Shown: positions 1 through 10,947 of the stretch, piece after piece
Position numbering within the stretch: the first letter of the stretch is position 1
How the letters are laid out: each line of letters begins with the position of its first letter
Origin: a virus
Lineage: Duplodnaviria; Heunggongvirae; Uroviricota; Caudoviricetes
Direction: 5' to 3' (one strand)
DNA: 10,947 nt
Virus record (IMG/VR): IMGVR_UViG_2648501669_000001
The notes under the pieces: model-generated
The model's database searches: none
Told to the model about the DNA's origin: nothing
What the model saw: only the letters and a program-made list of their open reading frames with translations
Made by a program: the position numbers and the translations under genes

Positions 1-20
1 TAGTGTGGTAGGTGGTGGGT

Positions 21-159
21 CTGATGTCCGGCGGTGCTTTTGCCGTTACGCACCACCCCGTCAGTAGCTGAACAGGAGGGACAGCTGATAGAAACAGAAG
101 CCACTGGAGCACCTCAAAAACACCATCATACACTAAATCAGTAAGTTGGCAGCATCACC
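21..159 (-). mobile_element. Truncated IS1 copy (terminal inverted repeat plus first 139 bp), inverted, with its outer terminus abutting phage DNA at 160
   Basis: Positions 21-159 are the exact reverse complement of 10611-10749, which begins GGTGATGCTGCCAACTTACTGAT, recognised as the IS1 end. Positions 1-20 do not continue the IS1 sequence. Confidence 0.85.
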
Positions 160-339
160 GAAAGTGCGTTATCTGCAATGACGATAAAGGGTAATTCGTT
201 TACCTACGAGTCAATTGCGGTTTTACAACAACTGAAAAGGGATTACGAAAAACAACTCGTAAAACTCATTCAGCAAGAACGGCGCAAGGCTGGCAATTAC
301 TCACCAATTACACCGATTAAAGTACGCTTAACTCGATAA
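160..339 (+). other. Possible 3' remnant of an upstream gene truncated by the IS1 insertion (perhaps terminase large subunit C-terminus), or a small 53-aa ORF from ATG 178
   Basis: The frame is open from the IS1 junction to TAA at 337-339, ending 9 bp before the portal start. There is no convincing Shine-Dalgarno before ATG 178. It is below the ORF-track length cutoff. No family was recognised. Confidence 0.3.
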
Positions 340-348
340 GGATTTAAC

Positions 349-1872
349 ATGTTTAATTTTTTCAAACGCAAAAAAGATATGCCCGTGAATCCGGTTAAGA
401 AAATCGGTATTCGCCAACACCGCAAATTATTTGTAGATCGCAAGATTGAAGAATTTACCAAAGACTTACATAAACGCTCTTTGGGATTGGTTGAAAGCGA
501 CCGCATTGAAGGAAGTATGGCGCGTAATGTCATCACTGGCAGCATTAACAGCGCGATTAAGGGGTCCGCATCACGTCTATACAATCAAGGCCGTTATCTT
601 GCGTTAAACACTTCTATTGGCTCCCGTTATTGCCAACACGTTATTGATTCCGTGGTAGGTACTGGCTTACAGCCTCGAACCTTCGTTATGAAAGGGGAAA
701 AGCTGGACGCAACCACTAACACCGCTATTGAGAATGCTTTTTGGCGTTGGGCTAGCTCTCAGAAACGATTCTCGCGCATCGGAAAGATTAACTTCCTTGA
801 ATGCTTAAAGTTGATGGAAAAAGAGCGCGTGATGGGTGGTGATGCGTTTCTGGTACTCCATGAAGATGGTAAGGATCTGCAAGTATCCATTTATGGTGCG
901 GATTGTGTTGATTGGTCAGATCAGCGCACCTTAGATAACGGTAATGTCGTTTACGCTGGCATCGAATATGAAGATGAAAAGCCCGTTGCATATTGGTTTA
1001 GGCGTCGTGACCTGTTTACTCAGTCCTTTACTGGCGAACGTGTACGAATCCCGGCGGAAAGAGTGCTGCATTACTTTATCCCTGGTACAGCCGACGCATT
1101 ACGTGGTATTACTGATTTCTTGCTAATAATCAAAGATATAGCTCATCTTGAAGCGTTCCGCGAGACTGTAATAATCGGTAAGCGCGTGCACGCAAGCAGC
1201 ATGGCCTTTATCACAAGCGATAAAGAAAATCAAGATTCATTTGATGTTGGTGAAGATGACACGGAAAACTATCAACCGCCAACAATGATCACTGACTTCG
1301 AACCGGGTACTATCAATATACTGGAACCGGGGCAAGACGTTAAAACGGTACAATCAACTCAAGGCGGCGATGATTTCGAAAAATTCAATGAAGCAATGCT
1401 GACTTCTATTTCTATGGGTCTGTCTAGCTTTAAACAAGCTCTTACAGGAGATACAAGTTCTATTAACTACTCATCAGCAAAATTCGGTCATAATATTGAA
1501 TCCGCTCGCTTCAAGACGCATCAAGATCGCTTAGTTGATACTGTTATTCTTCCATTATTTGAGGCGTTTTTACGTCACGCGGTAATTAACTCAAAAATCA
1601 ATGTTCGCATGACGCAGATCGATTCTATTTTGGATGCAACGACAATTATTAGACCTCGCGTTACGTCTATTGAACCGATCAAAGATATTCAGAGTGAAGT
1701 TCTGTTAATAGAAAGCGGATTGAAGTCTAAAGCTCAGGTCATTATGGAAATGGGTCAAGATCCGTCTCAGGTCTTTAAAGAAATTGAGGCAGAAAAACAC
1801 ATGCTAAATACATGCGTCGTGAGTGAGGGTGAGACTGAAAAAGAAAAATCTCCTGATACTCAAAATGAATAA
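349..1872 (+). CDS. Phage portal protein (lambda gpB-like family)
   Basis: 507-aa ORF with AAGGA Shine-Dalgarno 7 nt upstream. Size and position (first gene of the head module, directly before the protease-capsid gene) fit a portal. The C-terminal region (LLIESGLKSKAQVIMEMGQDPSQVFKEIEAEK) resembles the lambda gpB C-terminus as I recall it. Confidence 0.8.
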   Translation: MFNFFKRKKDMPVNPVKKIGIRQHRKLFVDRKIEEFTKDLHKRSLGLVESDRIEGSMARNVITGSINSAIKGSASRLYNQGRYLALNTSIGSRYCQHVIDSVVGTGLQPRTFVMKGEKLDATTNTAIENAFWRWASSQKRFSRIGKINFLECLKLMEKERVMGGDAFLVLHEDGKDLQVSIYGADCVDWSDQRTLDNGNVVYAGIEYEDEKPVAYWFRRRDLFTQSFTGERVRIPAERVLHYFIPGTADALRGITDFLLIIKDIAHLEAFRETVIIGKRVHASSMAFITSDKENQDSFDVGEDDTENYQPPTMITDFEPGTINILEPGQDVKTVQSTQGGDDFEKFNEAMLTSISMGLSSFKQALTGDTSSINYSSAKFGHNIESARFKTHQDRLVDTVILPLFEAFLRHAVINSKINVRMTQIDSILDATTIIRPRVTSIEPIKDIQSEVLLIESGLKSKAQVIMEMGQDPSQVFKEIEAEKHMLNTCVVSEGETEKEKSPDTQNE

Positions 1873-1914
1873 CCCAACGGGGCGCAATGCCCCCAATAAT
1901 TTTCAAGGTGATCT

Positions 1915-3969
1915 ATGACAACAAAACAATTCCGTCGTAGTGTTGCGGTAGATACCCCTGATTTTATCGAAGAAAAAGACGAACGAATTATTGAATTGGC
2001 TTTCTCAAGCGAGGCTCCTTATACACGTTATTACATGAATCAGGACGGCGAGCAAGTCGAATTAAAAGAGATTCTCGTACACGATGAATCAGCGGTTGAT
2101 CTATCCGTTTTAAACGAGACTAACGCAAGTCTTCTGTTTAATCACAATCTGGATCTTCATATCGGCAAGATTGTTCCTGGCTCCGCTCGTATTGACGAAG
2201 ACCGTGTAGGTCGTTGCCTTGTCCAATTCTCCAAAGTAGGCCAACTGGCTAATGAATGCTTTGAGAAGGTAAAAGAGGGAACACTTTCACAAGTTAGCGT
2301 CGGTTATAACGTTCTTGATGGCAAAGCCGATTTTAACAAAGGGATCTATTATGTTACACGCTGGCAACCTTTCGAATGCAGTCTTGTAACGTGTGCCGCA
2401 GATCCATTTAATGCGGGTGTTGGACGCTCTCTAAATACAGACAACGAAATGATTGTTTTGGAGGGTGAACAAGTGGAAGACGAAATTAAAGATACTCCGG
2501 TCGAAGAAATTAAACCGGAAGATGAAGAAAAACGTTCCGAAGAAGAGAAAGAGGAACAAGAAAATGAAGAAATTGATTCCGATTCTGGAAATAGTGCTGA
2601 CAGTGGCGAAGATGTGGAAGAACCGCAAGAAGTAACGCCAGAAGAAAAAGAAGAACGTTCCGAAGATGAACCGGAAGAAACAGAAGAACTAAATAAAGAT
2701 ACAGACGAGAACGACGAAACGGAAAATACATCCGAACCAGTCGAAGAAGAAAAGATTGAAGACGAAGAAAAACCGTTTGAACGTTCTCGCGAAGATACCG
2801 CCGAAATTCGTGCTATCGGAAAACATCTAAATATCTCCGAAGACGTGATTGAAGCTGCAATTAAAGATAGTGCCGTGACTATTGAAAATTTTAAAGAAAA
2901 AGCACGCGCACTAAATACTACCGAATCTAAAACTTTTGTTAAAGGAAAAATTACCATGACCGATACCATTAAAACTCTGGAATCCCGTTTCGATCTTAAT
3001 AAAGCTGTACGTGCAATCGCAGAGGGTAAAGCCCTGACTGGCGCAGAAGCTGAATATTCTCAGGAAGAAGCACGTAAAGCCGCAGCGCGTGGTCGTGCGC
3101 AGCGTTCTAACTCCGTATTCATTCCGGCGTCCGCTCTGCGTGCTAGCCAGAACATGGAATCTCTGAAACCAGTAGTTGGTGAAGAAATCCGCCATGATTG
3201 CTTCGTTGATATGATCATGGAACGTTCTATTCTGGGTAAATTGGGTGTGCGTACCATTAACGCAACTGGTCCTGTTTCTCTGCCGTCTCTGACTTCCAGC
3301 AATCTGGAAAACTTCGGTTTTGTTGCAGAAGGTCAATCCGCTGGTGAAGGTACTATTAAGTTTGCAGCGCAGCCGATGACTCTCAAGACTTTTAACGGAA
3401 TTGTTCCTGTAACGCGTCAGGCTGCAATCACACTGCCCAATATTGGCGCTATCGTTGGTGAGCACATGCTGAAACACAGTGCTATCGCTCTGGAAAAAGC
3501 GATTCTGTCCAATGCTGCTAACACTAACGCTCGTGATGGTCTGACTAAGATCCTGACCGACGCTGGCAAAGTTAAACAGATTGATTGGACCTATGCCGAG
3601 TTCCTGAAACTGGTAGCTGAACTGACCGACAAAGGTTATAACGAAGCGGATCTGGCATTTGCTACCCGTGGTGTTGTTAAAGCTGAACTGGCAGCGCAAC
3701 TCAAAGCAGCTAATGTTCCGGGCTTCCTGGTAGAAGGCGATAAACTGGTTAACCGTCCGATCTATGGCTCTGGTGTAGTTGCTCAGGATACCATGCTGTT
3801 TGGTGACTTTAGCTCCCTTGTTGTTGCAGACTTCGGATCGCTGGAACTGGATTGCGACGATACCACAGGTCGCGCGGCTGGCAACCTGTACTTCCGTGTA
3901 TGGGCTGATCTGGATTGGGCTGTTATGGACCATAGCGCACTGACCGTAGTTCAGAAAAAAGTTGACTGA
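1915..3969 (+). CDS. Prohead protease - acidic scaffold/delta linker - HK97-fold major capsid protein fusion
   Basis: 684-aa ORF with AAGGTGA Shine-Dalgarno. The N-terminal ~170 aa look like an HK97-type prohead protease. Residues ~183-300 are a hyper-acidic low-complexity linker (EEKRSEEEKEEQENEE...). The C-terminal ~290 aa are HK97-fold capsid-like (e.g. GDFSSLVVADFGSLELD). It sits immediately after the portal. Confidence 0.8.
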   Translation: MTTKQFRRSVAVDTPDFIEEKDERIIELAFSSEAPYTRYYMNQDGEQVELKEILVHDESAVDLSVLNETNASLLFNHNLDLHIGKIVPGSARIDEDRVGRCLVQFSKVGQLANECFEKVKEGTLSQVSVGYNVLDGKADFNKGIYYVTRWQPFECSLVTCAADPFNAGVGRSLNTDNEMIVLEGEQVEDEIKDTPVEEIKPEDEEKRSEEEKEEQENEEIDSDSGNSADSGEDVEEPQEVTPEEKEERSEDEPEETEELNKDTDENDETENTSEPVEEEKIEDEEKPFERSREDTAEIRAIGKHLNISEDVIEAAIKDSAVTIENFKEKARALNTTESKTFVKGKITMTDTIKTLESRFDLNKAVRAIAEGKALTGAEAEYSQEEARKAAARGRAQRSNSVFIPASALRASQNMESLKPVVGEEIRHDCFVDMIMERSILGKLGVRTINATGPVSLPSLTSSNLENFGFVAEGQSAGEGTIKFAAQPMTLKTFNGIVPVTRQAAITLPNIGAIVGEHMLKHSAIALEKAILSNAANTNARDGLTKILTDAGKVKQIDWTYAEFLKLVAELTDKGYNEADLAFATRGVVKAELAAQLKAANVPGFLVEGDKLVNRPIYGSGVVAQDTMLFGDFSSLVVADFGSLELDCDDTTGRAAGNLYFRVWADLDWAVMDHSALTVVQKKVD

Positions 3970-4098
3970 ACTCCTGTAGAACCTTCTGAACCTTCCCCCG
4001 ATTCGGGGGAAGAAAATCTGATTCCTAAACCGGAAGAAGAATCCCAGACGGTTACGGCGAAAGCCACAGCAAAACGAGGCCGCAAGCCTAAAGAATGA
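3970..4098 (+). other. In-frame open extension after the capsid UGA stop (42 codons ending ...VTAKATAKRGRKPKE); candidate readthrough product
   Basis: Same frame as 1915-3969, with no stop codon until TGA at 4096-4098. The stop context is UGA-A. It contains the 36-bp core repeat 4051-4086 that is identical to 9994-10029. Confidence 0.4.
4051..4086 (+). repeat. 36-bp exact direct repeat, copy 1 (gttacggcgaaagccacagcaaaacgaggccgcaag); encodes VTAKATAKRGRK
   Basis: Identical to 9994-10029. The flanking sequence is also similar at DNA and peptide level. Confidence 0.9.
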
Positions 4099-4103
4099 TA
4101 ATT

Positions 4104-4130
4104 AGCCCTGCCTAGTGCGGGGCTTTTTTG
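4104..4130 (+). terminator. Rho-independent terminator downstream of the capsid gene and its extension
   Basis: GC-rich hairpin agccctgc / CTAGT loop / gcggggct followed by TTTTTT. Confidence 0.6.
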
Positions 4131-4159
4131 TATGTAAATACTCCATAAAGGGGGTAACT

Positions 4160-4450
4160 ATGTTCAAATTATCAGAATCACAATTATCAAGAATGTTTAA
4201 GAGTGCTCCTGTATTTTCGGTGGAAGGTGGTAAATCAATTCGTGCTTATCATGAAATTACTACTACCGACGAATCGGGGGTAATGACAGAAACCGAATTT
4301 CTATTCTGTCGTGAGGGAGACTTAAATCAGGGTGATATTGTCATTGTAGAAAACCAGCGTTTCAAAGTTCAATACGTTAAGCGCAATGGTGATAATACCA
4401 CTGATTGCTTTATTACTCTGGCAGGGGGTACACATGCTCGCTACCGTTAA
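4160..4450 (+). CDS. Small head-tail connector / head completion protein (putative)
   Basis: 97-aa ORF from the internal ATG at 4160, preceded by AAAGGGGG Shine-Dalgarno. The longer ORF-track start at 4115 lies inside the upstream terminator. Size and position (between capsid and tail terminator) fit a connector. No strong motif was recognised. Confidence 0.5.
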   Translation: MFKLSESQLSRMFKSAPVFSVEGGKSIRAYHEITTTDESGVMTETEFLFCREGDLNQGDIVIVENQRFKVQYVKRNGDNTTDCFITLAGGTHARYR

Positions 4451-4856
4451 TAATATGCCTAGACTGAAAATCAAACGCGCCTTGCAAGATATTATCGAAC
4501 AAGATTTAGGTCTGGCTTTAAACGTAGAACAAACTCAGCAAGGTTTTAGTGATGACGTGGTTTGTTGGATTACTGGCATGAATGAGACTTACACTAGGGT
4601 CCGTGGTGGTAATGCAATGCAAGCTGAATGCGTTATCGAAATGCAATTATATTCTCAGATTCATGAAACAAAAATCCATGAGGGTATTTGCCAGATAATC
4701 CAGATTCAGCCGGATAACCCACGTTTTAAAGATTTGGGCTTCTCTATTTCAGATATCACTCCAGTAGCCTCTAATACCGATTATGACGATGATTCTAGTG
4801 ATGGGGGTATCGTTGGGACACTTAGCCTTAAATTTTCTTATCTAGCGCGTTTTTAA
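4434..4856 (+). CDS. Tail terminator protein, lambda gpU-like (putative)
   Basis: 140-aa ORF from ATG 4434 with AGGGGG Shine-Dalgarno, overlapping the previous gene by 17 bp. VCWITGMNETYT...ECVIEMQLY and the acidic C-terminal TDYDDDSSDGG resemble lambda gpU (VAVYLTGAEYT...ELHIEVFL...YDYRRDDDAG) as I recall it. Confidence 0.55.
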   Translation: MLATVNNMPRLKIKRALQDIIEQDLGLALNVEQTQQGFSDDVVCWITGMNETYTRVRGGNAMQAECVIEMQLYSQIHETKIHEGICQIIQIQPDNPRFKDLGFSISDITPVASNTDYDDDSSDGGIVGTLSLKFSYLARF

Positions 4857-4865
4857 GGGGTAATA

Positions 4866-5699
4866 ATGAATATTACACAAGATAACTTAGATATTTTCAC
4901 TGGATCACATGTTGAAGTGTCGATCTCTAACCAGATAGACAATCAGGTCGACTTTTTCGATCCTAGCTTTAGTTCTATGGAGAACATCGCAGCATTCCCT
5001 ACGCTAACCGAATCCACAGAGATAGAAACTCTGGAAGAGTACGATCAGGACGCTACGGGGAAACTTGCTGGTTATCGTAGACTGGAACCGACAACACTCA
5101 CATTAAACCGTGTTCTTGACGATGAACATCAAGCAATGTTGATGAAAGCGGTAGAGGATAAAACACCTTTACGCTTCCGTATGTTCTATGTTGTGAACTC
5201 TGGCTATAGTGCTGCTAACACTGGTTACTATGTCATCTATGACGCTTATGTCACTAGTCACAAAACCCGTGGCGCAGATAACAAAGCTGTAACACTGGAA
5301 TTTAAACTTGAACCAGATGGCGGGATTTTGGCAAGGGGTATTGCTACCGAAGGCCGGATCTTACGTCAGGGTGATTTTGGTATCGGTGCTGGTGTAAATC
5401 CTTTCAGTGGTCCTATTGATAGTGAATCTCTGACAGGAAACCGTTTCGTAACTTACAAGGGAACTGCTAGCACTAACCCTTATGGTGCTGATACATCGTT
5501 AATTCATCTTCAAGCTAATGAGCATGGCGCATGGCAATTAACCTGTAATACTTCTGGCGCACCGCGTTTACGCGTCCGAAATATTCAGGAAAACGGTAAA
5601 TCTGAATGGATTAAAGTCTATTCTACAAACGAGAAACCGACACCTAGCGAAATTGGCGCAGTGGCTAAGACTGACCGGATCGATTTCGGCGAATACTAA
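4866..5699 (+). CDS. Major tail (tube) protein with a C-terminal fibre-like domain
   Basis: 277-aa ORF with AAGGGG Shine-Dalgarno, placed after the gpU-like gene as in the lambda Z-U-V order. The N-terminal ~135 aa are paralogous to ORF 9445-9915. The C-terminal ~70 aa are homologous to an internal segment of the tail fibre (shared KPTP-x-EIGA motif). Confidence 0.6.
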   Translation: MNITQDNLDIFTGSHVEVSISNQIDNQVDFFDPSFSSMENIAAFPTLTESTEIETLEEYDQDATGKLAGYRRLEPTTLTLNRVLDDEHQAMLMKAVEDKTPLRFRMFYVVNSGYSAANTGYYVIYDAYVTSHKTRGADNKAVTLEFKLEPDGGILARGIATEGRILRQGDFGIGAGVNPFSGPIDSESLTGNRFVTYKGTASTNPYGADTSLIHLQANEHGAWQLTCNTSGAPRLRVRNIQENGKSEWIKVYSTNEKPTPSEIGAVAKTDRIDFGEY

Positions 5700-5729
5700 G
5701 GATTCTCCTACCTAAATAAAACATGACGC

Positions 5730-5763
5730 GGGGAGGTTAACGCCTCCCTTATTCCTGTTTTAT
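5730..5763 (+). terminator. Putative intrinsic terminator after the major tail gene
   Basis: Hairpin GGGGAGG / ttaacg / CCTCCC followed by a T-rich tract (ttattcctgtttta). The T-run is interrupted. Confidence 0.45.
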
Positions 5764-5779
5764 AGTGAGGTGATTCTAG

Positions 5780-8700
5780 ATGCAATCAATCCAATTTAAA
5801 CGCACACAAACGGCTGGTAAAAAACCAACGCCGGAACAATTATCACAGGGTGAATTGGCTATTAACCTTGCTGATCACGTTCTGTATACCAAAGATAAAA
5901 ATAACGCAGTAGTTCAAATCTCTGTTTCTCCAGAAAAACACGCTGAACTTAACACGAAAGTAGACCAGAATAAAACTAGCACTGACCGTGTTATTGCTTC
6001 CAACAAACAAGAGGCCGCTAATAATCTGGCTAGTGTTAAAGCTGAACTGAATCAGACTATTACCGCTAAAGACACCGCAACCAATAAGCGCATTGATGCT
6101 ACCAACACCACTGTTAGTAACTTAACCCAGACAGTTACGGCAAATAAAACCGATGCCGACACTAAGATCAATAACCTTACGGGGACCGTATCTGCGAATA
6201 AGACCGCAATTGAAAGAACCGTTGCCGCAAACAAATCTGATGCAGATAGCAAACATGCAGCTTTAACGAAAACGGTCACTGACAATAACACCGCGATTAA
6301 CAACAAGGTTAATACCACTAACACCAACGTTAGCAACTTAACTAAAACTGTTACTGCAAATAAAACCGATGCAGATAACAAAATTTCTAGCTTAACTAGC
6401 ACGGTTGCAGCTAACAAAACAGCGATTGAAAAGGTCGTTTCCGACAACAAGAAAGATGCTGATACTAAAATCAGTAACCTTACTGGCACTGTGAATAGTA
6501 ACCATACCGCTATTAACAACAAGGTAGACCAGAACAAATCATCGACCGATGCCGCAATTACAGCCGCCAACAAGCGAATTGATGGTATTGAAGGTAGTGC
6601 TAACGCAGCATATATCAAGAAGAACACAAAGACCTATCACGGCGCGTATTTGTATAGCAAGACTGGTAACTATCTGGAAGATTCAACCGCGAGAGATCTT
6701 AATTACTTCGGTGCATTCCGTACCAATGGTCAAGATGGACTCATGGATCTAACCCTTAACGTTCCTCACTCTTCCGGTAAAGCGCATGGTCGAGGATTTA
6801 CTTTCCGTTATGCGTCTGGCGGATCTCGTGTTGAAACCTATGGTTTTGATGCTCAGGGACAAAAAGCGTTTAGCTATAAAATGTATCACGAAGGGGATAA
6901 ACCGACTCCTGCTGAAATTGGCGCATATACCAAAGGCGAAATTGATAAGATGTTTATTAAAAATGTCACAATGTCTGTTCCTTCTGGTAGTGAATCCCGT
7001 GCTTATTTCAAGATTGCTACGGCTACGATCCCACAAAATGGTCGTATGGTAATGCTTCGTATCTTCGGTGGTAATGGTTATAACGTTAACTCCTATGATC
7101 AGGTTGATTTCCTTGAAATTGTTATCCGTTCCGGTAACAATAACCCGAAAGGCGTTAGTATTGCTGCTTATCGTCGAAACTCTTTGAACGTTCATCAAGT
7201 ATTTGCGGTTAATACTTCCGGTGATAACTACGACATTTACGTTAACTACGGTCGTTATACTGATAACGTTATTGTCGAATATGGTAAGACTAGCGGTGTT
7301 TCACTGACTGTTCATGACACCCCAGCTATGACTAACGTTAAGCCGTCTACTGGTGTTACAGATGGACGTGTTATTACAATGTTCAACACCGAAAACAAGG
7401 CCGGAACGTTGATGTTTGATAATAACGGACAGGGTACATATGATATTGTCAGTTTGAATAACGATTCAGGTACTGGTAAAAAATATCTTCGTAAATTCCG
7501 TAGTAAAGCCGCAGAAACAATCTGGCATGAAACTGTTCAAGGTAACGTTTATCGTTTAGCGACTGGTACTACCGATTCTAGCGAAGTTCTACGAATCACT
7601 GGTCGCACCATGTTTACTGGTAAAGGTGTATTTGATGCCGGACAAAACGTTCTTAGATTAGAGCGTCCTAGTAATCAATCAAACTATATTGAATGGCAAG
7701 ACCGCCGCAATGGTGCTAATGCTCGTCAAGGTTGGATTGGTTTTGGTAGTGCTGAAACAAATAACTTCCAATGGTATAGCGATCAGGGGAAAAACTCATT
7801 TCAGCTAGAAGCTAACGGTCAATGCTCTATTACCACTGGTGCAACTAAAATTGTATATACAAACGGCGAGTATGTAGCTGCTAACTCAAATGCATTCCGT
7901 ATGATTTACGGCAATTATGGTGCATTTTGGCGCAATGACTCCGCAAAAGTTTATCTTCTGTCAACGGCTGAAAACGATAAGTTTGGTGGTTGGAATACTT
8001 ATCGACCATTCATTTATGATCTGACTTCCGGTAACGTTCAATTAGGCGGTGATGGTAACGAAGATGCATTAACGTTAGAACGTGCAAGCCGTGCCGCTCG
8101 TTTTAGTAATGACGTTTACATTAAGAAAGGTTTTTTGACTTTCGACGCTGGGCGTTCTGGATCGCGTGATTATATTCGATTTAATCATTGGGGCGATAGC
8201 AACAACGCCCGTGATAACGTTTTATACCTCGAAGACAGCAAAGGTCGCCATTTCAGCACCGAACGTAATATGGCTACAGGTGGACTAAAGGCATATTTCT
8301 TAGGTGATCTTGAAGTTGCTGGTCAAATGAGATGGGGTAAGAATACCGGACAATCTAGCTTCAATATTCGTGCATGGGGTAATGATACTCGTAAACAAGT
8401 ATTAGAATGCGCAGATGAAAGCGGCTGGCATTTCTACACACAGCGTGCTGGCGGTCCTGGTACTACCGCAATCGAGTTTAGCGTAAACGGTAAAATTAAC
8501 GCTCCCCAACTGTCTATTAGTCAGGATGCAACCATTCCTAAGTTTAATAGCGGTTTTGGTGTTGGTGTTGCTAACGGATTGGGTGGAAATTCTATTGTTT
8601 TAGGCGATAGTGATACTGGATTTAAACAAAACGGTGATGGTGTCCTTGATACCTACGCTAATAACGTTAATGTTGTTCGTCACACATCTGGCGGCATTAC

Positions 8701-9388
8701 CTTTAACCGTCGTGTTGTTGTTGCTAACAAAAATGGTTTAGGTTATTCCGATATCTCTGATGTAACTCGTGACCGTGCTCCATTCTTGGTTAACATGGAT
8801 AGTATTAAGGGGTCTGGTGCATATTTCCCTATTATCGCTGGCTATAGTAACTTAGGTGATGTTGGTTATCGTCAGTCCTTCGAGTTTGGTTGGACGGGTA
8901 GCGGTTCGACTCACGGTTGGCGTACTGGTATTATCCGTATGCGTGGCGATAACGCCAACGGGCAGCAAGCACGCTGGGAATTTACTATGGATGGTGACTT
9001 TACCGCAGGTCGTAACGGTAGCTTTAACGATGTTTACATTCGCTCTGACTCCCGTTTGAAGATTAACAAGGAAGAATTACAGGACGGCGCATTAGAGAAA
9101 GTAAACTCCCTGAAAGTCTACACCTACGATAAAGTTAAATCTCTTTCAGATGACACAGTGATTAAACGCGAAGTAGGTATTATTGCTCAGGATCTGGAAG
9201 AAGTGTTGCCGGAAGCAGTAGGTATTCAATCCACCGAAGATCCAGAACAACCGGAAGCAATTAAGACTATTTCTAACTCTGCTGTTAATGCCTTGATTAT
9301 TAAAGCTATTCAGGAAATGGACGCCAAATATCAAGCTAAGATTGAAGCATTGACTAAAGAGATTGCCGAACTCAAAGCAACTAAATAA
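5780..9388 (+). CDS. Tail fibre protein with a repetitive shaft and a C-terminal intramolecular chaperone (peptidase S74-like) domain
   Basis: 1202-aa ORF with GAGGTGA Shine-Dalgarno. The N-terminus has a tail-fibre anchor-like motif (KKPTPEQLSQGELAINL). Tandem T/N/K-rich repeats form the shaft. GLGGNSIVLGDSDTGFKQNGDGVLD and ADESGWHFYTQR resemble the conserved distal region of P2 gpH-type fibres as I recall them. The C-terminus has an SDSRLK (S-D-x-R-x-K) autoprocessing motif followed by a coiled-coil-like tail. Confidence 0.85.
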   Translation: MQSIQFKRTQTAGKKPTPEQLSQGELAINLADHVLYTKDKNNAVVQISVSPEKHAELNTKVDQNKTSTDRVIASNKQEAANNLASVKAELNQTITAKDTATNKRIDATNTTVSNLTQTVTANKTDADTKINNLTGTVSANKTAIERTVAANKSDADSKHAALTKTVTDNNTAINNKVNTTNTNVSNLTKTVTANKTDADNKISSLTSTVAANKTAIEKVVSDNKKDADTKISNLTGTVNSNHTAINNKVDQNKSSTDAAITAANKRIDGIEGSANAAYIKKNTKTYHGAYLYSKTGNYLEDSTARDLNYFGAFRTNGQDGLMDLTLNVPHSSGKAHGRGFTFRYASGGSRVETYGFDAQGQKAFSYKMYHEGDKPTPAEIGAYTKGEIDKMFIKNVTMSVPSGSESRAYFKIATATIPQNGRMVMLRIFGGNGYNVNSYDQVDFLEIVIRSGNNNPKGVSIAAYRRNSLNVHQVFAVNTSGDNYDIYVNYGRYTDNVIVEYGKTSGVSLTVHDTPAMTNVKPSTGVTDGRVITMFNTENKAGTLMFDNNGQGTYDIVSLNNDSGTGKKYLRKFRSKAAETIWHETVQGNVYRLATGTTDSSEVLRITGRTMFTGKGVFDAGQNVLRLERPSNQSNYIEWQDRRNGANARQGWIGFGSAETNNFQWYSDQGKNSFQLEANGQCSITTGATKIVYTNGEYVAANSNAFRMIYGNYGAFWRNDSAKVYLLSTAENDKFGGWNTYRPFIYDLTSGNVQLGGDGNEDALTLERASRAARFSNDVYIKKGFLTFDAGRSGSRDYIRFNHWGDSNNARDNVLYLEDSKGRHFSTERNMATGGLKAYFLGDLEVAGQMRWGKNTGQSSFNIRAWGNDTRKQVLECADESGWHFYTQRAGGPGTTAIEFSVNGKINAPQLSISQDATIPKFNSGFGVGVANGLGGNSIVLGDSDTGFKQNGDGVLDTYANNVNVVRHTSGGITFNRRVVVANKNGLGYSDISDVTRDRAPFLVNMDSIKGSGAYFPIIAGYSNLGDVGYRQSFEFGWTGSGSTHGWRTGIIRMRGDNANGQQARWEFTMDGDFTAGRNGSFNDVYIRSDSRLKINKEELQDGALEKVNSLKVYTYDKVKSLSDDTVIKREVGIIAQDLEEVLPEAVGIQSTEDPEQPEAIKTISNSAVNALIIKAIQEMDAKYQAKIEALTKEIAELKATK
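6101..6530 (+). repeat. Tandem in-frame coding repeat in the fibre shaft (two ~72-aa units built from ~12-aa sub-repeats)
   Basis: Unit A (TNTTVSNLTQTVTANKTDADTKINNLTGTVSANKTAIER...TAINNKV) and unit B (TTNTNVSNLTKTVTANKTDADNKISSLTSTVAANKTAIEK...TAINNKV). The antisense ORF 6052-6627 is a shadow of this repeat. Confidence 0.8.
9044..9388 (+). other. Predicted C-terminal intramolecular chaperone domain of the fibre, released by autoproteolysis at Ser ~1089
   Basis: SDSRLK at 9044-9061 matches the S-D-x-R-x-K Ser/Lys dyad pattern of tail-spike and fibre chaperone domains (endosialidase, T5 pb1) as I recall it. The domain is ~113 aa, a typical size. Confidence 0.55.
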
Positions 9389-9395
9389 TAAAAGT

Positions 9396-9414
9396 CGGGG
9401 GACTAGTTCCCCCG
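9396..9414 (+). terminator. Perfect 7-bp GC hairpin after the fibre gene (terminator or RNA processing/stability element)
   Basis: cggggga / CTAGT loop / tcccccg, 8 nt after the TAATAA stop. It is followed by an A/T-rich tract but no clean T-run. Confidence 0.4.
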
Positions 9415-9444
9415 TAATAACAATTTTAATTAAGGGGTAATTCT

Positions 9445-9915
9445 ATGTCTCAATTTAATGATATTTTTACTGGTGGTCTGGTAAGTCTGTTCTATCACGC
9501 TGATACCACTAACACCGCTCTCGATCACTCCGGTTACGAAGAAATTAAAGAGTGTGCTGGTTTTCCTGAAACTGGTATCGAGCGCGGTACTGTAGAAGTT
9601 AAATCCTTCTCTTCTCAGTATAACCGTAAGCTGGTAGGGAAACTGAACGTTCCTGATCTGACTCTGACCGTTAACTACATCCCAGGCGATGCGGTGCACG
9701 AGAAGCTCATTAAAGCTGCCGAAGACGGTACTCGAATTCAGATTAAGATTGAATACTATGTTGATGCAGCAAAACAGACTGGTATTCGCACCGCTTTCAA
9801 CGGCTTTATTTCTAAAGTTGCTATGAACGGTGGCGATGAAGAAGTTGTAACCAAAGAGTTTACCTTCGCGGTGGACGGAAAGCCGATCAAACAGGAAATC
9901 TTCACTGCCGGATGA
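9445..9915 (+). CDS. Tail tube protein paralog (tube domain only)
   Basis: 156-aa ORF with AAGGGG Shine-Dalgarno. It is homologous to the N-terminal domain of ORF 4866-5699 (MSQFNDIFTG vs DNLDIFTG; GKLNVPDLTLTVNYIPGDAVHEKLIKAAEDGT vs GYRRLEPTTLTLNRVLDDEHQAMLMKAVEDKT). Confidence 0.6.
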   Translation: MSQFNDIFTGGLVSLFYHADTTNTALDHSGYEEIKECAGFPETGIERGTVEVKSFSSQYNRKLVGKLNVPDLTLTVNYIPGDAVHEKLIKAAEDGTRIQIKIEYYVDAAKQTGIRTAFNGFISKVAMNGGDEEVVTKEFTFAVDGKPIKQEIFTAG

Positions 9916-10041
9916 ACTAACGAAGAACTTCCTTTAATAGAACCGGAACCACTACCGGAACATGAAGCGGTGGGGATTCCAGAAGTAGAAGAAGTTACGG
10001 CGAAAGCCACAGCAAAACGAGGCCGCAAGGCTAAGAATTAA
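9916..10041 (+). other. In-frame open extension after the tube-paralog UGA stop (41 codons ending ...VTAKATAKRGRKAKN); candidate readthrough product
   Basis: Same frame as 9445-9915, with no stop until TAA at 10039-10041. The stop context is UGA-A, identical to the capsid case. It contains the 36-bp repeat 9994-10029. The reading frame here is taken from the ORF track. Confidence 0.4.
9994..10029 (+). repeat. 36-bp exact direct repeat, copy 2
   Basis: Identical to 4051-4086. Confidence 0.9.
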
Positions 10042-10045
10042 TTTT

Positions 10046-10075
10046 AAGCCCTGCCTTAATGGTGGGGCTTTTTTA
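10046..10075 (+). terminator. Rho-independent terminator downstream of the tube paralog and its extension
   Basis: Hairpin aagccctgcc / ttaat / ggtggggctt followed by TTTTTT. It is homologous in position and sequence to the terminator at 4104-4130. Confidence 0.55.
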
Positions 10076-10089
10076 TTGGAGTAATCAAA

Positions 10090-10596
10090 ATGGCAAATGT
10101 CGTTAATAAGCCCGGCTGGGTCGGATCATCTGCTGTATCGGTGACGGGTAAGCGATGGATGAAAGAAGCATTAACAGCTTTAAAAGTTCCGGCTCCGCGT
10201 AATATGTCGGCAATGGCTGGTCGTGGTATGGATACGGTTGTAGCTACTGCATCGTGGTCTACTTCATTGGGTAATAACTGGGGTGTAACTGCTTCAAACT
10301 ATCCTGTTTCCGGTATGCAAAGCAAAGGATCTATGGAGAACCCCGAAAACGTGGGCGTAGGCCGTCTAATTGGCGTTATCGTTGGTCAATTCAATGGCGG
10401 TACTCCTACTATGGCTGTATATCTCCAGAACGGTAGAGCGGGGAATATAACCGTTAATTTGGGTGGTGCTGCTGTCACTGTTCCTTATAACAGTATGCAA
10501 AGTGGTTTTCATTACTACTGGTTAAGCAATCCTCCGGCAGCTTTCCTCAATAACATTAAGAAGACTGGCACTAAGCAGACTTTGAAAATCTCTTAA
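10090..10596 (+). CDS. Hypothetical protein (168 aa), G/S/T/N/W/Y-rich, possibly a structural or receptor-binding accessory
   Basis: ORF with GGAG Shine-Dalgarno and a TAA stop 14 bp before the IS1 terminus. No family was recognised. Confidence 0.55.
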   Translation: MANVVNKPGWVGSSAVSVTGKRWMKEALTALKVPAPRNMSAMAGRGMDTVVATASWSTSLGNNWGVTASNYPVSGMQSKGSMENPENVGVGRLIGVIVGQFNGGTPTMAVYLQNGRAGNITVNLGGAAVTVPYNSMQSGFHYYWLSNPPAAFLNNIKKTGTKQTLKIS

Positions 10597-10610
10597 ATTC
10601 TAAATAAACA

Positions 10611-10850
10611 GGTGATGCTGCCAACTTACTGATTTAGTGTATGATGGTGTTTTTGAGGTGCTCCAGTGGCTTCTGTTTCTATCAGCTGTCCCTCCTGTTC
10701 AGCTACTGACGGGGTGGTGCGTAACGGCAAAAGCACCGCCGGACATCAGCGCTATCTCTGCTCTCACTGCCGTAAAACATGGCAACTGCAGTTCACTTAC
10801 ACCGCTTCTCAACCCGGTACGCACCAGAAAATCATTGATATGGCCATGAC
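10611..10850 (+). mobile_element. Truncated IS1 copy (terminal inverted repeat through the 5' part of insA)
   Basis: Matches the canonical IS1 sequence from base 1 (GGTGATGCTGCCAACTTACTGAT) for ~239 bp as recalled. Mismatches begin at ~10850 and similarity is lost by ~10865. Confidence 0.9.
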
Positions 10851-10884
10851 TGGAGTTGGAAGCCTGCATCTTATACACATCTGA
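10666..10884 (+). pseudogene. insA: Truncated/hybrid insA: first ~61 aa identical to IS1 InsA, then an unrelated 11-aa tail
   Basis: [61 protein letters not shown] matches the InsA N-terminus including the CPSC...CSHC zinc-finger. The C-terminal [11 protein letters not shown] diverges from the InsA helix-turn-helix region. Confidence 0.7.
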
Positions 10885-10947
10885 CGCTCACGACGATCGA
10901 TCTAGAACAAACAACACAGACTCACACCCGCAATCAACAGAAATACA

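Follow-up and report, generated by a model that had tools for sequence, protein, structure and literature searches.

The stretch of DNA analysed here, which we call the window, comprises 10,947 nt of a virus of the class Caudoviricetes (IMG/VR record IMGVR_UViG_2648501669_000001), and its bases 160-10610 are the head and proximal tail module of a siphovirus-type prophage of Escherichia coli. Our subject is the 3' end of two of its genes, those for the major tail tube protein and the major capsid protein, and in particular the 41 or 42 codons that follow the UGA stop of each gene in the same frame. Both genes lie on the + strand, as do the other genes and the terminators given below, and families were assigned to the genes of the window with Pfam and PHROGs.

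The tube gene (9445-9915) encodes a 156-residue protein with the fold of the N-terminal domain of lambda gpV. The protein matches PF16460 at 29.0 bits (cutoff 28.4) and phrog_158 at 7e-22, and a Foldseek search with the AlphaFold model returned lambda gpV (8k36/7t2e, E~1e-6, probability 1.00). In the intact relatives L001 and L002, the homologous gene lies upstream of two small genes and a presumed tape-measure gene, with a gp38-like gene alone in between. A preliminary description of this DNA had called the gene a tube paralog; the gpV-like fold, the profile matches, and the gene order show that it encodes the main tube protein. The gene ends GCC GGA TGA, with the TGA at 9913-9915 and an A at 9916, and the tube extension, TNEELPLIEPEPLPEHEAVGIPEVEEVTAKATAKRGRKAKN (9916-10047), consists of 41 in-frame codons (9916-10038), a TAA (10039-10041), TTT, and a second TAA (10045-10047). 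It runs into an intrinsic terminator (10046-10076), the best terminator hit in the window, whose 10-bp stem with six G-C pairs (10046-10070) is followed by TTTTTT.

The capsid gene (1915-3969) encodes a fusion of a prohead protease (S78), a Glu-rich scaffold, and an HK97-type major capsid protein (PF04586, PF05065, phrog_617). Its stop is a TGA at 3967-3969, the next base is again an A, and the capsid extension, TPVEPSEPSPDSGEENLIPKPEEESQTVTAKATAKRGRKPKE (3970-4101, tandem stops included), consists of 42 in-frame codons (3970-4095) and the stops TGA TAA (4096-4101). Behind it lies the second-best terminator hit in the window (4104-4130), which also emerges from folding; its stem of eight pairs, six of them G-C (4104-4124), begins 5 nt past the first of the tandem stops and is followed by TTTTTT.

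The two gene ends have sequence in common as well as layout. Positions 4051-4113 and 9994-10056 form a 63-nt repeat with 87% identity, which includes an identical 36-nt core (4051-4086 and 9994-10029) that encodes VTAKATAKRGRK in the tube copy and contains the element GGCGAAAGCC at 4056-4065 and 9999-10008. The preliminary description had reported that the tube gene stops at UGA-A and continues in frame for 41 codons to a TAA and a terminator, with a 36-bp core identical to that of the capsid copy. All of this is borne out by the sequence, and a check across the tube gene end places the extension in frame 0. We note that both terminators lie inside what is presumably a single late operon and that the gaps between them and the following genes, 13 nt and about 40 nt, are too short for a promoter. 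The downstream tail genes must rely on terminator readthrough or antitermination, and no antiterminator was identified for them.

Conservation of the gene-end module among relatives

Gene ends were sampled from 15 E. coli chromosomes, from 80 IMG/VR relatives of the capsid protein, from contigs that encode distant tube proteins (Salmonella, Edwardsiella, Providencia, and one metagenome), and from all exact matches to the 18-nt core in IMG/VR and a metagenome collection. De-duplication left 46 distinct module-bearing variants at capsid ends and 28 at tube ends, from E. coli and Providencia. The stop is TGA-A in 74 of 74, and frame 0 is open in every one of them, with no frameshift and no internal stop; frames 1 and 2 hold between one and seven stops each in the 35 unique extensions that were checked frame by frame. 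Extensions are 25, 28, 33, 42, 43, 44, or 45 codons long behind the capsid gene and 36, 39, 40, or 41 codons long behind the tube gene. These 11 length classes differ by whole codons throughout, and past the final stop the same alignment contains indels of 1-2 nt. Capsid extensions end in TAA TAA in 39 of 45 variants and in TGA TAA in three, tube extensions end in TAA-NNN-TAA, and the final stop lies 4-6 nt ahead of the terminator stem in all variants.

The 18-nt core has 57 matches in IMG/VR, solely behind the capsid gene (34) or the tube gene (23), and a metagenome scan added 23 core copies, all at TGA-A. A third context for the cassette was considered for 21 extra metagenome matches and rejected, as these are chance 18-mers in unrelated sequence. 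The lengths of in-frame runs behind other prophage genes were also tried as a test and proved uninformative, since neighbouring genes often share a frame.

Extension-less tube alleles exist in otherwise similar E. coli prophages (e.g., PE15). All 26 distinct alleles of this kind end in TAA, 23 of them as TAA-T and some as TAA TAA, with the terminator directly after the stop. Among gene ends without the module in general, TAA is used by 43 of 50 in the capsid set and by 85 of 112 in the tube set; these counts pool near and distant relatives and, in the tube set, also the ends of paralogs. Of 34 genes in the intact prophage L001, 27 have TAA as their stop, and TGA-A is found at the capsid and tube genes alone. 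The context at both genes, UGA ACU, is the hexamer of the leaky coat stop of phage Qbeta, where, by the record annotation, readthrough yields the A1 protein. Among the stop codons of E. coli, UGA shows the most readthrough and is decoded mainly as Trp, at percent levels in reporters (PMC11126739).

The family-wide UGA-A, the open frame, the whole-codon indels, and the tandem stops together argue that the stretch behind both genes is read by ribosomes. The preliminary description had gone further and proposed a peptide under selection rather than a recently copied non-coding block. The features just listed do speak against a freshly copied non-coding block; selection on the peptide is too strong a claim, as the amino acids themselves are near-neutral (see below), and part of the block has probably been copied recently after all. 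The 36-nt identity is limited to the lineage of the window, with only 14-25 nt in common between the two copies of other phages. A TEKST variant and a TNEELP start, moreover, are each found at the capsid end of one phage and at the tube end of a different one, swaps that point to gene conversion between the copies, and local gene conversion of this kind best explains the 36-nt identity. That exchange also agrees with the earlier idea that the duplicated cassette could drive recombination between the head and tail modules, but we found no sign of deletions. On a wider scale, conservation is higher in the extension than in the capsid protein: the two E. coli capsid lineages have C-terminal domains that are only ~47% identical and yet have the extension in common, and the relative L015 joins the capsid lineage of the window with the extension of the other lineage.

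A basic tail apparently reached by several decoding routes

The extension peptide follows a kept pattern, namely, an acidic spacer rich in Glu, Pro, Ser, and Thr, then (V)TAKATAK, and then a Lys/Arg cluster. The tip is spelled KRGRKPKE, KKQRKTKE, KKVGRPPKAK, KRSRKAKD, or, in Providencia, KRRKSK, with different sequences and codons. In the AlphaFold model of a close homolog with a 39-codon extension (P0001), the extension has block-mean predicted local distance difference test (pLDDT) values of 38-54 and no secondary structure, compared with block means of 75-93 for the tube core, excluding the N-terminus and one long loop. The tube extension is thus predicted to be disordered. An AT-hook (PF02178), which has a G-R-P core between basic residues, was considered for the basic tip and set aside; the tips of the window, RGRKPK and RGRKAK, give no hit, and the one variant with any score, KKVGRPPKAK of other phages, stays below the threshold (13.1 bits, cutoff 17.4, E=0.09).

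More distant relatives carry similar tails without an intervening stop. The Edwardsiella tube protein encodes the tail directly and ends ..NVIPEAVAAKEK, and its tblastn alignment crosses the E. coli TGA. Directly encoded ends are also found in the Salmonella and Providencia tube proteins (..ARK/SRK) and in the Salmonella capsid protein (..ASKAK). The Edwardsiella capsid gene (L020, L021, and L031; gene end at L020 2700-2860) ends in TGA-T, and the basic module lies in the -1 frame, as ..VSVKSGRKPKTDN and VIPTGREEVSVKSGRKPKTDN. This frame is open from just 11 codons before the capsid stop, where G GUA AAG is a possible slip site, which suggests that the Edwardsiella capsid protein reaches the same tail by -1 frameshifting. 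Because direct, readthrough-type, and -1-frame versions all occur among relatives, the ability to add a basic tail at the C-terminus seems to be a trait of the family, realized via different decoding routes. For the module duplicated on the capsid and tube genes, the most economical reading would be a basic tail shared by head and tail subunits.

We also note a Lys/Arg-rich stretch in a more distant capsid lineage (L050 and L084). Here the capsid gene ends in TAA-G, and the stretch lies in frame past this stop and ahead of a terminator (EKQKQKRKRKLKLL.. in L050 and EKQKRKLKLL.. in L084). It could be a coincidence or an analogous tail.

Probable UGA readthrough and its alternatives

Considering the stop context and the comparative data together, we think it probable that readthrough of the Qbeta type yields minor, extended forms of the capsid and tube proteins. 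Ribosomes at the ends of both genes would meet UGA ACU, and most would terminate. Roughly one to a few percent would insert Trp via near-cognate tRNA-Trp, go on in frame for 41-42 codons, and halt at the tandem or near-tandem stops just ahead of the strong intrinsic terminator. The predicted junctions are ..IFTAG-W-TNEELP.. and ..KKVD-W-TPVEPS.., which would give rise to the peptides QEIFTAGWTNEELP... and ...VDWTPVEPSEPSP.... The minor products would carry a disordered, acidic, Pro-rich spacer of ~30 residues and a Lys/Arg tip (..TAKATAKRGRKxK).

In lambda gpV, an exterior domain follows the C-terminus of the tube domain (PMC8718954). The present tube domain stops where the outward Ig-like (immunoglobulin-like) domain of gpV would begin, so the extension on the tail should likewise project from the tube exterior. 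By analogy with T7 10B, we assume that the head extension is external too. If we take readthrough to be 1-5%, with ~400 capsid subunits and ~200 tube subunits, a virion would bear anything from a few tethers to some twenty. Such cationic extensions of head and tail might bind polyanions weakly and non-specifically, such as lipopolysaccharide, capsule, mucus, or nucleic acid; this is speculation as to function, though we regard weak polyanion binding as the likeliest role.

Several observations weigh against readthrough and a selected peptide. The open frame in one sequence alone is not significant, since 12% of the dinucleotide-preserving shuffles of the tube extension and 20% of those of the capsid extension also leave frame 0 open, and the weight of the argument rests on the relatives. 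These relatives are not fully independent of one another: the extension travels with a conserved downstream block across capsid lineages (e.g., L015), so that there are fewer independent lineages than variants, and the two copies exchange sequence and do not count as independent either. The substitution pattern, counted by column parsimony, differs from that of ordinary coding sequence. In the gene bodies, the ratios of synonymous to nonsynonymous changes are 84:36 for the tube gene and 95:51 and 26:13 for the larger and the other capsid lineage, respectively, that is, 65-70% synonymous, whereas the extensions give 10:18 for the tube (36% synonymous) and 16:45 for the capsid (26%), with a neutral expectation of ~25%. 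The synonymous excess that marks a protein-coding sequence was not found in the extension, and its amino-acid sequence appears to evolve almost neutrally, with the charge pattern and composition alone kept. Searches with the readthrough product returned no homolog in which a sense codon replaces the TGA. Pfam has no family for the extension peptides of the window, which leaves a binding function without support from a family assignment. Natural E. coli isolates, which like B strains have another prfB allele than K-12, may also terminate at UGA more efficiently than K-12. Finally, GGCGAAAGCC, a mini-hairpin of 3 bp capped by a GAAA tetraloop, shows no nucleotide change in the E. coli copies except for the variant GGAGAAATCC (tube gene of L014 and capsid gene of the Providencia relative L022), in which the pairing is kept and two amino acids are changed. 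The invariance and the compensatory variant hint at a constraint at the RNA level.

One candidate for the missing sense-codon homolog was the 198-residue P0001 (ENA contig L016), which we rejected because its DNA has TGA at this position. The public gene call on this short contig is an artefact of a gene caller that switched the genetic code and read the tube TGA as Trp, and the resulting protein equals the predicted readthrough product.

Among the alternatives, translation-coupled attenuation fares best, although we consider it unlikely. A ribosome that reads through the stop would mask the 5' arm of the terminator, so that polymerase enters the downstream genes, which are in low demand; the passage of the ribosome would matter and the peptide would not, and the leakiness of translation would determine that of transcription. 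Such a role would fit the position of the final stop, 4-6 nt ahead of the stem in all variants, the lack of promoter room past either terminator (13 nt and about 40 nt), the location of both sites behind the genes of the two most abundant virion proteins, and amino acids that are near-neutral while the frame and the stops are kept. However, it does not require the Lys/Arg tip and the acidic spacer, both of which are kept through different nucleotides, and other genera encode related tails directly. In extension-less alleles and relatives, moreover, the terminator lies 7-20 nt past the main stop, within reach of every ribosome, so an extension is not needed for coupling.

Slightly less probable still is an untranslated RNA element of the 3' untranslated region, which would act in stabilising or processing the most abundant pair of late mRNAs, with the open frame being incidental. 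The near-neutral substitution ratios would be expected of such an element, as would the lack of synonymous variation in GGCGAAAGCC, whose sole variant, GGAGAAATCC, keeps the pairing. It would also fit the folding of the two regions, which is better than that of shuffles (z = -3.3 and -4.0, terminators included), and the CCCCC/GGGGG hairpin of the capsid copy, whose stem is conserved while its loop varies. Yet beyond the 10-nt core, the hairpins differ among variants and between the two copies, the covariation amounts to a single event, and a search of Rfam returned no family at E<=1. An RNA element would also leave unexplained the strict TGA-A, the 11 whole-codon length classes, the fact that frame 0 alone is open, and the in-frame tandem stops. 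A conserved hairpin past the UGA, either one that stimulates readthrough or one resembling a selenocysteine insertion sequence (SECIS), was sought as well and rejected: the tube copy has no equivalent of the CCCCC/GGGGG hairpin, and the weak CCGG hairpin found there is disrupted in part of the variants.

We find it improbable that the extension is a decaying relic, a tail once part of the main open reading frame that was cut off by a nonsense mutation and now drifts without a role. Directly encoded tails in relatives, substitution ratios near neutral, and extension-less tube alleles in otherwise similar prophages are what such a history would leave behind. Drift is hard to reconcile with zero frameshifts and zero internal stops in 74 distinct variants from E. 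coli and Providencia, with a stop that is always TGA-A and never TAA or TAG, and with tandem stops retained at the end of the extension, and the same state would need to have originated and been retained at two genes. Specific decoding of the UGA, as selenocysteine or under a reassigned code, is effectively excluded, because the host is E. coli, TGA is a normal stop in five other prophage genes, no SECIS-like hairpin is conserved past the UGA in both copies, Rfam gives nothing, and the one gene call that reads the tube TGA as Trp, that of P0001, is the artefact described above.

Readthrough of the UGA, which we prefer over these alternatives, has its nearest precedent in Qbeta, which infects the same host species and has the same UGA ACU, and in which, by the record annotation, the in-frame extended coat protein accounts for a small part of the virion, at a few percent. 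The A1 extension of Qbeta is essential. The differences are considerable: Qbeta is a small single-stranded RNA phage with one recoded gene and a folded extension of ~200 residues, and the present case is a tailed double-stranded DNA prophage with two putatively recoded genes and a putative peptide of ~40 residues that is predicted to be disordered.

Closer in virion type are the Listeria phages PSA, A118, and A500, in which long forms of the capsid protein (Cps) and the tail protein (Tsh) arise by +1 or -1 frameshifting (PMC5009743). There, as would be the case here, both the major capsid and the major tail protein of one siphovirus are extended at the C-terminus by recoding; the Listeria extensions are reached by a +1 or -1 frameshift, whereas those described here lie in frame 0 behind a stop, and the capsid and tube extensions here have a common cassette that includes the terminator. 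In T3 and T7 (10B) and in SPP1 (gp17.1*), recoding extends one protein each (PMC5009743, PMC8718954). These proteins and the Ig-like domain of lambda gpV are likewise C-terminal additions to major capsid or tube subunits, and, as noted above, the tube domain here ends where gpV enters its Ig-like domain. The additions of T3, SPP1, and lambda are folded Ig-like/FN3 domains, and that of T7 10B is not Ig-like (PMC5009743). The SPP1 and lambda additions have been shown to project outward, several additions are dispensable, and the SPP1 domain has been proposed to be a weak carbohydrate binder (PMC8718954, PMC5009743). All of these are made by frameshifting or encoded directly, in contrast to the short unstructured peptide behind a UGA described here. 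The extensions of the window depart from slippery-site frameshifting in that they lie in frame 0, the module being in the -1 frame solely in the Edwardsiella relative, and from folded Ig-like/FN3 additions in that they comprise 41-42 residues with no Pfam match, the block-mean pLDDT of the close homolog being 38-54 without secondary structure. An engineered counterpart is the lambda foo vector, which reportedly achieves mosaic display on gpV through a suppressible amber stop in a suppressor host, giving mixed plain and extended subunits. It resembles the present arrangement in the stop between tube protein and addition and differs in its artificial amber codon and suppressor; the UGA here is natural and would need none.

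Our literature searches found no stop-codon readthrough in structural genes of tailed phages, the cases returned being solely those of RNA phages and eukaryotic viruses, and in the documented recoding cases of tailed phages a frameshift adds a folded domain. Sub-stoichiometric decoration of virions by recoding where capsid and tail genes end is an established phage strategy. If the extensions are translated, readthrough of the Qbeta type extends to double-stranded DNA prophages, which a small share of the complete E. coli genomes carry, a disordered peptide of ~40 residues can be the cargo of readthrough, and the system is a natural model for low-copy peptide display on head and tail. A bolder version, which we put forward only tentatively, is that a temperate E. 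coli siphovirus deliberately uses UGA readthrough to control copy number at two genes and so places the same short polycationic tether, in a few copies each, on head and tail, for general adhesion to polyanionic surfaces (lipopolysaccharide, capsule, mucus, or DNA) in place of folded Ig-like domains. Gene callers would then overlook products of this kind as a rule; standard callers do not see the two proposed here, and one caller switched the genetic code instead. Intact, inducible relatives in sequenced strains make the readthrough hypothesis inexpensive to test.

Prophage context and neighbouring genes

The best match to the window is E. coli strain HCP5S3_I4, with 100% identity across the aligned 95% of the window; the region is split by IS2 in that strain. 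The tube region is present in ~20 of 5,426 complete E. coli genomes at 84-100% identity, and capsid-end extensions also occur in relatives without the tube module. Outside these close relatives, a nucleotide search of the phage collection gave a match only to a T-even-like fibre segment, so that the collection contains no isolated phage of this type, the closest capsid protein by tblastn is that of phage DCP80 (37% identical), and a profile search of genome contigs with the capsid alignment found one distant locus, in Mangrovibacter, without the module.

An intact relative in strain 39EVA (NZ_CP138416, about 1.217-1.250 Mb) adjoins prpBCDE; strain CE0007a (NZ_CP119011) carries another, which was analysed over its structural module (roughly 4.305-4.320 Mb). 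The genes of the 39EVA prophage begin with terminase, portal, the protease-scaffold-capsid fusion, and two small genes in the position of head-tail connectors, continue with a 277-residue tube-like protein, a long fibre, the tube protein, and a gp38-like adhesin, and end with two small genes and a long gene, distal tail proteins, lysis genes, and a serine recombinase. The latter two small genes and the long gene are presumed, by position and size, to encode the tail assembly chaperones and the tape measure in intact relatives, where the records call them hypothetical. In the window, one of the small genes in the connector position resembles a head-tail attachment family, weakly and below the threshold. 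The prophage segment of the window has neither a terminase nor the presumed tape-measure gene, and this copy is either a remnant or an assembly cut in IS1. The ends of the window (1-159 and 10611-10947) are non-phage and consist of inverted IS1 fragments and junk sequence; the fragments at 21-159 and 10611-10749 are 100% complementary over 139 nt. The last ~90 nt of the window (..CTTATACACATCTGACGCT..) we take to be a degraded Nextera/Tn5 adapter, which they resemble.

Directly behind the tube terminator lies a gp38-like gene for a tail-fibre adhesin (10090-10596; PF21721, phrog_1121). Such a gene is next after the tube gene in 34 of 36 distinct extension-bearing alleles versus 0 of 26 extension-less alleles, an association that could reflect mosaic linkage or a functional link. 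The fibre gene (6667-9319) is a mosaic with a C-terminal S74 chaperone domain. Positions 6667-8492 have 74-81% nucleotide identity to gp37, the distal long-tail-fibre gene of T-even phages (RB49, Phi1, and JSE), and 7843-9081 are 86% identical to phage Cognac. Given the match to T-even gp37, this is a myovirus adhesin module within a siphovirus prophage.

The real tube paralog of the window is encoded at 4866-5699, a 277-residue protein with a tube-like N-terminal domain (phrog_158, E=5.9e-8) and 22-31% identity to tube proteins by tblastn. In distant relatives, the tube-like domain and the long fibre form a single open reading frame (e.g., L023 4049-7702). At nine loci (L044, L045, L050, L051, L052, L056, L058, L061, and L084), a TAA, three to five codons, and an ATG separate the tube-like gene from the fibre gene, always in the same frame; the split may be a gene fission or another candidate for readthrough. 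Lastly, the scaffold region of the capsid gene (2467-2773) contains diverged direct repeats rich in Glu and Lys (families D3, D4, D6, D7, and D11) at spacings of 78-240 nt, the commonest being 123.

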